In this document: positions 63,072 to 63,223 of the stretch, piece by piece
Layout of the letters: each line of letters starts with the position of its first letter
Position numbering within the stretch: position 1 is the stretch's first letter
Assembly: GCF_009931435.1 (NCBI RefSeq)
Contig: NZ_CP043414.1
Strand: one strand, 5' to 3'
Length of the DNA stretch: 64,000 nt
Origin: Escherichia coli
GTDB taxonomy: Bacteria > Pseudomonadota > Gammaproteobacteria > Enterobacterales > Enterobacteriaceae
Position numbers and translations under genes: made by a program
Notes under the pieces: generated by a model
The model's database searches: none
What the model saw: the letters and a program-made list of their open reading frames with translations, nothing else
What the model was told of the DNA's origin: nothing

Positions 63072-63118
63072 AAGGCGTTCTGCCCTCCACCGCGTCCGCC
63101 TGGCTTGCGGTAGTCTTT

Positions 63119-63217
63119 TTAGTGCTCAGTATTAAAAGTGTGCGTATGTGCGCCTGCGTTATGGTTATATGCACTCACACTATGGGTATGTGCACCTTGT
63201 AAATGGCTTTCTTTCAT
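63119..63217 (-). CDS. Micro-ORF, 32 aa, His-rich with repeated A-H-T-H motifs ([32 protein letters not shown])
   Basis: Not in the ORF track (under 60 aa). ATG preceded at about 9 nt by AAGGA lying in the last codons of the upstream gene; stop TAA; sits in the 152-nt gap between the terminase-like and head-completion-like genes. Confidence 0.35.
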   Translation of the reverse strand: MKESHLQGAHTHSVSAYNHNAGAHTHTFNTEH

Positions 63218-63223
63218 TTGTTG

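Follow-up and report, generated by a model that had tools for sequence, protein, structure and literature searches.

We have identified a micro-ORF of 32 codons between the terminase and head-completion genes of an Escherichia coli prophage as a genuine small gene and not a spacer artefact, on the grounds of its conserved ATG, ribosome-binding site (RBS) and termini, codon variation specific to its frame, and a PF03335 score above threshold. Its product consists of HxH repeats between a fixed 8-residue head and a fixed 11-residue tail. Comparison with related phages establishes the reality of this gene, its membership in the tail-fiber-type HxH repeat family, its hypervariability, its optional status, and the independent acquisition of similar genes elsewhere in the P2 family. 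Taken as a whole, the explanation that serves best, and to which we give somewhat better than even credence, is a real, late-expressed optional gene whose product would form a metal-stapled homotrimeric HxH rod, its accessory role being a guess.

The window (the entire 64,000-nucleotide stretch of DNA that was analyzed) carries a prophage of the ESSI-2/Quadragintavirus group of Peduoviridae, and the host DNA elsewhere in it is that of E. coli. The relevant features are as follows.

51956..52543, minus strand: tail-fiber assembly protein of the lambda gpK/Tfa type (PF02413, 111 bits).
52543..54150, minus strand: tail fiber with a T4-gp37-like HxH needle tip containing 7 HxH sites (PF12571, PF07484 and PF03335, together with the translation).
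62568..63020, minus strand: gpL head-completion/Ad1 adaptor gene, 150 aa from ATG 63020 (PF05926, 133 bits).
63021..63118, minus strand: conserved structured spacer (26 distinct versions aligned, with a covariation test).
63119..63217, minus strand: HxH-repeat mini-protein gene (the micro-ORF), 32 aa, with ATG at 63217..63215 and TAA at 63121..63119.
63224..63928, minus strand: gpM-type small terminase subunit (PF05944, 135 bits; annotated gpM in RefSeq relatives).
63227..63231, minus strand: AAGGA, a Shine-Dalgarno-like site that precedes the micro-ORF ATG by 9 nt, read from the sequence.

The micro-ORF and its AAGGA RBS were found where the initial annotation had placed them, with a translation exactly as first written, and the Pfam scores above bear out its description of the neighbors as terminase-like and head-completion-like. 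The AAGGA overlaps the last sense codons of gpM and is identical at every allele-bearing locus. The TAA stop of gpM lies 6 nt before the micro-ORF ATG and in the same frame (63215..63226: TAA CAA CAA ATG). That the two share a frame is probably a coincidence, given the TAA stop and the lack of such a frame relation for the other cargo gene found at this site (below). A read-through fusion of gpM to the HxH peptide was rejected on similar grounds, the arrangement being absent from both the other cargo gene and a second phage with an HxH insertion (contig L094, below). A consensus scan of the minus strand from 62000 to 64000 found no sigma-70-like promoter, such scans being weak either way. Downstream of gpL lie gpR-like, S-like, sheath (DUF2586) and HP1-Orf24-type tube genes.

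The gap that holds the micro-ORF is wider than the 152 nt first reported. The program-made ORF list puts the start of gpL at GTG 63071 (167 aa), and this start was adopted in the initial annotation. ATG 63020 is the start used by RefSeq relatives, and the Pfam GPL model aligns from residue 14 of that version. Related sequences contain +1/-1 indels just upstream of ATG 63020, and the 17 extra codons of the longer version (63018..63071) fall within the structured RNA element, where the relatives' indels break their frame. Because gpL starts at ATG 63020, the true gap is 203 nt (63021..63223).

In the window, the micro-ORF peptide has two HxH sites and one degenerate YxH site between the conserved head MKESHLQG and the conserved tail GAHTHTFNTEH. 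His accounts for 8 of the 32 codons (25%), which are dispersed and include no consecutive run. Searches of Pfam, PHROG and NCBIfam found no domain in the product other than tail-fiber-type HxH repeats. With a gathering threshold of 20 bits, PF03335 (Phage_fiber) scores 23.5 bits (E 4.8e-5) for the 32-aa allele, 32.7 for a 53-aa allele and 29.8 for a 78-aa allele. The family pattern of HxH flanked by small residues, then a hydroxyl and then an aliphatic residue is present as GAHTHTF in the window, and in up to 10 regular units in longer alleles. In the six-frame translation of the 64 kb, the motif [GA][AS]H[TS]H[ST] occurs five times, twice in the micro-ORF and three times in the tail fiber, and its presence in both is no chance feature. 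PF03335 is likewise found in both the micro-ORF and the T4-gp37-like fiber tip, in agreement with the earlier view that the GAHTHSVS-type repeats are of the same kind as the fiber-tip units.

Other searches added little to this assignment. A sequence search of the PDB gave two weak matches, of which the T4 gp37 tip (2XGF) was the only phage protein; the other, a low-complexity match to the splicing factor SF3A2, scored slightly above it. PHROGs yielded weak matches only, to phrog_36248 (unknown function) and to tail-fiber families, and NCBIfam and PADLOC returned no match for the micro-ORF. No sequence likeness to decoration proteins (lambda gpD, phi29 gp8.5, P4 Psu) was found in PDB, Pfam or PHROGs. 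An AlphaFold2 single-chain model of three 53-aa copies joined by Gly-Ser linkers had no secondary structure and, with a pLDDT of 37.8, was uninformative. Because the HxH sites are spaced at 7-8 residues in the micro-ORF family versus 9 in gp37-type needles, the packing of the units may differ between the two. At 32 aa, with no baseplate-attachment or receptor-binding domain found, the product falls outside the tail fiber or receptor-binding class.

Thirteen intact alleles, ranging from 32 to 82 aa, were recovered from the same slot in related Quadragintavirus/ESSI-2-like prophages. The set comprises alleles of 32, 32', 33, 47, 48, 53, 61, 68, 73, 78, 78' and 82 aa along with the window's own, and is distributed as follows.

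32 aa: this window, with an N20S variant in L012.
33 aa: CP169309.
47 aa: P0001.
48 aa: L187.
53 aa: CP106924.
61 aa: OZ547246.
68 aa: L010.
73 aa: L186.
78 aa: ev129, with a second form in CP063503.
82 aa: L011.

The RBS, the start, the N-terminus MKESHLQG and the C-terminus GAHTHTFNTE(H/Q) are constant across alleles, which differ in the number of 7/8-residue GAH(T/S)H(S/T)(V/L)(G/S) units in between. None of the 13 alleles is damaged. Intact frames are weak evidence of selection, because the repeat units are multiples of 3 nt; a table of the codons used in each unit is stronger evidence. Variation between units falls mostly at third positions, with G encoded by GGT/GGC/GGG, A by GCA/GCT/GCG and T by ACC/ACT/ACG. 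For the Ser that follows the second His, some units use AGT/AGC and others TCT, an exchange that needs at least two substitutions and that would read as Thr to Arg on the antisense strand. In the unit-codon table, this codon-level variation is specific to the micro-ORF frame. The initial annotation had put forward a comparison of synonymous with nonsynonymous changes in related prophages as a check; in the intact alleles, unit variation is mostly synonymous. The micro-ORF is probably translated.

Opposite the micro-ORF, the plus strand at 63122..63282 contains three antisense ORFs that overlap one another; they are 26-44 aa long and have a high content of Cys, Met and Trp. They were rejected as genes. 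CAT is the complement of ATG, so the antisense frames are open through this complementarity, and the residue changes in them would be non-conservative.

Allele length changes by unequal recombination, as judged from two observations. The allele of ev129 contains a 45-nt unit in 4.1 copies with 98% identity, and removal of 63 nt between two direct repeats of the 53-aa allele yields the window allele. The window allele itself is not long enough to be called as a tandem repeat.

The codon usage contrast that had been drawn between the micro-ORF and the resident tail fiber proved selective, since the fiber unit at residue 423 reads GGT GCT CAT ACC CAT AGT GTT AGC, nearly the codons of the micro-ORF. 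The conclusion attached to that contrast was nevertheless upheld: micro-ORF and resident fiber DNA match over at most about 20 nt, which rules out a recent duplication of the resident fiber gene. The micro-ORF was also rejected as a piece of any sequenced phage fiber gene, as the E. coli family has no DNA match among 50,697 phage records; because no donor was found there at the DNA level, the micro-ORF is no fresh fragment. A template repeat of a diversity-generating retroelement was considered and rejected, since a reverse transcriptase is lacking and the DNA is not similar to that of the fiber. The resident fiber (51956..54150 region) is itself a mosaic, in which a tail-collar N-terminus (PF12571, PF07484) is joined to a tip much like the needle and head of T4 gp37. 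Its partner is a Tfa chaperone of the lambda type and not a T4-type gp38 or gp57A, and this Tfa protein is the dedicated fiber chaperone of the window's phage.

Occupancy of the slot was surveyed in 80 IMG/VR viral contigs related to the window, which were found through gpL. Most (71 of 80) have an empty slot with a bare spacer of 94-101 nt, four carry the HxH ORF, and five carry an unrelated gene of ~65 aa. Among complete E. coli genomes matching the region, 4 of 24 carry the HxH ORF. Thirteen of the others match over ~80% of the query at 97-99% identity and have no gene between gpM and gpL; the flanks are 98.8% identical in 7 of these 13, and the one inspected (CP046006) has a bare 96-nt spacer. 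A degenerate N-terminus pattern found the gene in 0 of 100,044 species-representative genomes. Presence therefore varies at a fixed insertion point among near-identical phages, as in morons and other accessory cargo. On this distribution, the HxH gene is optional cargo of a small insertion slot, and it is rare and dispensable.

The alternative slot gene encodes ~65 aa and is annotated 'L33' in ev015 (L002:1780-1977); it also occupies the slots of L047, L048, L089, L080 and L093. It belongs to phrog_8618 (unknown function) and has 53 homologues in Enterobacterales prophages. AlphaFold2 models its product as an SH3-like small beta-barrel (pLDDT 85.6), to which the nearest solved structure is HspQ/YccV, a Lon specificity factor (5YCQ, TM 0.83, 20% identity). 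The predicted fold is no virion-type fold and fits a cargo slot.

The micro-ORF had been called unannotated, but GenBank already lists the identical peptide, under the name 'hypothetical protein [Escherichia coli]', for 37 contigs, and its N20S variant for 52. Longer alleles are already annotated as 'phage tail protein' or 'tail fiber protein', labels that, when given to these HxH ORFs, are domain-driven over-calls. A word search of 5.8-billion proteins found only two relatives of the micro-ORF peptide. A HMMER search of 1.84-billion representatives returned mostly long fibers and eukaryotic low-complexity proteins, with P0073 as the one useful match; the genomic context of P0003 (234 aa) was uninformative.

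Two other P2-family lineages took up similar HxH mini-ORFs independently, making three insertions in all. Each is in the operon sense with its own start codon, RBS and stop, and none has DNA similarity to the fiber gene of its own phage. P0073 is a 54-aa ORF of HxH units only, located between terminase and gpL on Logan contig L094 (L094:253-420), in a phage whose gpL is 57% identical to that of the window. It sits downstream of the structured spacer, inserted exactly at the gpL start, where it took over the former RBS and ATG of gpL; gpL restarts 3 nt after the P0073 stop (TAG CAA ATG). The insertion is absent from L100, a 99%-identical relative of L094. None of 62 relatives in the L094 lineage carries cargo, and no relatives of P0073 were found in IMG/VR. 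In Burkholderia phage FLC10, an 89-aa HxH-only ORF lies between the tube gene and gpE (L009:3968-4237). It is annotated as gp25 with 56 aa from an internal ATG, and opens at an upstream ATG after GGAG to give 89 aa. Close relatives KS14, CEP1 and FLC5 lack it. PF03335 scores of the P0073 and FLC10 ORFs are 15.2 and 17.2 bits, respectively, which is below threshold.

The spacer between the micro-ORF and gpL is a conserved element in its own right. It contains an outer GC stem (63101..63094 with 63042..63035), inner stems and a variable, covarying apical hairpin, then a U-run, after which comes the gpL RBS, GGGGGA, at 63029..63024. Its 98 nt are more conserved than the flanking genes, with long invariant stretches even in Cronobacter phage ESSI-2. 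When a four-stem, 20-pair structure was compared with the 26 distinct versions, 95.9% of cells pair and compensatory changes are seen at 9 of the 20; the observed values were attained by 0 of 500 shuffles, and slid controls pair at 30-41%. RNAalifold independently agrees on the outer stems. A single-sequence fold is no better than shuffles (z = -0.24), the structure being seen only by comparative analysis. Rfam searches of 62000..64000 at E<=10 gave noise only, with no match for the spacer. Analogous elements composed of a stem, inner stems and a U-run occupy the same gap in phage P2 (L099:1401-1500) and in FLC10 (L098:7816-7915).

Whatever fills the slot, be it gpM alone, the HxH ORF or the 65-aa gene, its stop codon lies 1-4 nt before a conserved GACUACC, and the stop codon of the micro-ORF is 17 nt before the outer stem. 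By its sequence features, the spacer looks like an elaborated intrinsic terminator or RNA-processing site, and it may set the capsid-to-tail expression ratio. The terminator-like element predates the micro-ORF insertion.

To our knowledge, HxH repeats have been known only within large fiber and spike proteins. The repeat family, the metal chemistry and the presence of the ORF in databases are already known; a free-standing, hypervariable mini-protein made up of HxH repeats only, and captured repeatedly in P2-family late operons, seems not to have been described. Literature on HxH, GxHxH, PF03335, Quadragintavirus and P2 late-operon terminators provided background on fiber sites; neither free-standing HxH peptides nor the M-L spacer came up in it.

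Among the closest known systems are the T4 gp37 needle (2XGF) and the gp37-like tip of the resident fiber, with which the micro-ORF product shares the PF03335 repeat and its G-x-H-x-H-hydroxyl-aliphatic units. In gp37, one iron is coordinated at each HxH by the motifs of three chains. That protein is about 1000 aa long and is built of an attachment domain, a shaft and a receptor-binding head, with chains that ascend the needle and then return. The micro-ORF product has repeats only, with 7/8- in place of 9-residue spacing; it lacks a receptor-binding domain, its repeat number is hypervariable, and it is encoded in the head/packaging block. In the R-type pyocin fiber shaft and the spike apex of P2 gpV and phi92, a six-His octahedral Fe site is built from three symmetry-related HxH motifs and has been proposed as a folding reference point (PMC6116203). 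These proteins hold one buried site in a large folded trimer, whereas HxH sites make up nearly the whole micro-ORF product.

The gene also resembles phage morons, in being present or absent in near-identical phages and in using a defined slot with alternatives (HxH ORF, 65-aa SH3-like protein or nothing). It differs from morons in that the consensus scan detected no promoter of its own and in that the adjoining terminator-like element is older than the insertion. His-rich metal-binding peptides and the hisL leader are similar in small size and high His content (25%), but have no sequence relationship to the micro-ORF product, which lacks a consecutive His run. Its ordered HxH spacing and its Pfam match speak for a structural repeat, as opposed to a metal sponge or an attenuator leader.

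We hypothesize that the micro-ORF is an optional, cargo-like gene of an ESSI-2/Quadragintavirus-type P2-family prophage and is expressed late. Ribosomes would translate it on the capsid/packaging transcript, using its own AAGGA or else re-initiating once gpM has been read. Expression would be coupled to gpM in the window's family and to gpL in L094, and would be late and lytic, not lysogenic, because an own promoter was not detected and the terminator-like element predates the insertion. Solved HxH structures are trimers in which the three HxH motifs of each level place six His on one octahedral Fe(II), or on Zn in gp12 (PMC6116203); the buried metals have been proposed as folding registration points for fiber trimers (PMC6116203), and further background on HxH fiber sites is available (PMC11705849). 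Because solved HxH repeats form trimers, 2XGF was matched and the resident tip is gp37-like, we infer by analogy a metal-stapled homotrimeric rod, in which three chains would align in register. Six histidines at each HxH level would bind one octahedral Fe(II) or Zn(II) ion, metal binding being a reasonable inference from the solved structures. Repeat number, which shifts fast through unequal recombination between 21-45-nt units, would set rod length, from 2-3 sites in the window allele to about 10 in the longest. Our best guess at the role is a dispensable accessory of virion assembly or of the virion surface. Counting against this explanation are the rarity and dispensability of the gene and an HxH spacing unlike that of gp37-type needles; in addition, the 8-residue head and 11-residue tail offer very little for docking to a virion. 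A more specific version, a self-assembling metal-stapled trimeric nanorod built into the virion as a head, neck or capsid-surface fiber or as a portal/adaptor plug, its length tuned by rapid change in repeat number, seems to us distinctly unlikely.

A serious rival to the late-expressed rod, although an unlikely one, is a neutral passenger: a fiber-like repeat fragment that came to lie in one of the few non-coding gaps of the late operon, minisatellite-like, translated only through its place behind gpM and of no use to the phage. The rarity, sporadic occurrence and dispensability of the gene all suit a passenger, as does a slot that takes an unrelated gene too, and units of 21, 24 or 45 nt keep the frame for free when the repeat number changes. 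It is harder to reconcile with three independent insertions that are all in the operon sense and equipped with start codon, RBS and stop, with the lack of damage in any of the 13 alleles, and with the Ser AGY/TCT switch and third-position variation, which indicate constraint at the protein level; the failure to find a donor fiber gene in the phage records also speaks against a fresh fragment. That there is no gene at all, only an untranslated spacer whose open frame stems from repeat composition, is barely credible. Several frames on both strands are indeed open across the repeats, and the window allele shows no registrable tandem array; against this stand the conserved ATG, RBS and termini, the frame-specific codon variation, the Pfam match above threshold and the complete ORFs of the same kind in independent lineages. 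The adjoining non-coding element, moreover, evolves quite differently, by base-pair covariation.

The initial annotation had conceived of a fiber-related factor. Such a factor would be soluble and would buffer or deliver Fe/Zn to the HxH sites of the fiber, nucleate trimerization, or co-assemble with HxH fibers of its own or a competing phage. Fiber and micro-ORF do have a repeat family in common, it has been proposed that fiber trimers use buried HxH metals as reference points in folding (PMC6116203), and HxH-type fiber tips are present in all three micro-ORF phages checked (the window's prophage, ev129 and FLC10), while ESSI-2, with an empty slot, has a fiber without HxH. HxH fibers are common in the family, however, which makes this co-occurrence weak evidence, and the micro-ORF lies 9 kb from the fiber genes, in the head/packaging block. 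A dedicated role in fiber assembly is unlikely because ev015, with the same HxH fiber type, has the other cargo gene, near-identical prophages (those with 98.8% identical flanks) have an empty slot, and a dedicated Tfa chaperone is already encoded beside the fiber gene. We regard a fiber-related factor of this kind as improbable.

We give still less credence to a regulatory upstream ORF, in which translation of a His-rich leader just ahead of the terminator-like RNA would adjust how much transcription continues into gpL and the tail genes, in the style of the his operon leader. The proportion of His codons, a stop codon shortly before the outer stem of a conserved structure ending in a U-run, and the same placement of the stop relative to that structure whichever gene fills the slot would all accord with such a leader. 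Yet the 71 of 80 relatives that lack an ORF also have the structure, just as well conserved; in L094 the HxH ORF comes after it, and in FLC10 the ORF occupies another gap altogether. A role as an attenuator leader is unlikely for a peptide whose ORF is found on either side of the structure and is absent from many loci that have the structure. Nor is an alternative antiterminator pairing with the ORF evident, and neither a match to a Pfam repeat family nor a range of 32-82 codons would be expected of a leader peptide. A his-type attenuator leader (hisL) in the strict sense was rejected, the His codons being dispersed and not consecutive.

The rod favored here has implications beyond this prophage. 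A free-standing HxH protein of 32-82 residues would be a minimal natural form of a metal-templated trimer, with possible use as a test of metal-nucleated fiber folding or as a small, designable metal-stapled rod. The spacer RNA, which covaries, has no Rfam family and separates terminase from head-completion genes in P2-like phages, may be worth at least as much follow-up as the micro-ORF. Three independent captures into non-coding gaps of P2-family late operons, always in the expressed orientation, suggest that the HxH mini-genes have some selective value. Were the nanorod reading true, the micro-ORF would act as a contingency locus governing a structure on the phage surface, and P2-family late operons would have captured HxH mini-genes as a module again and again.
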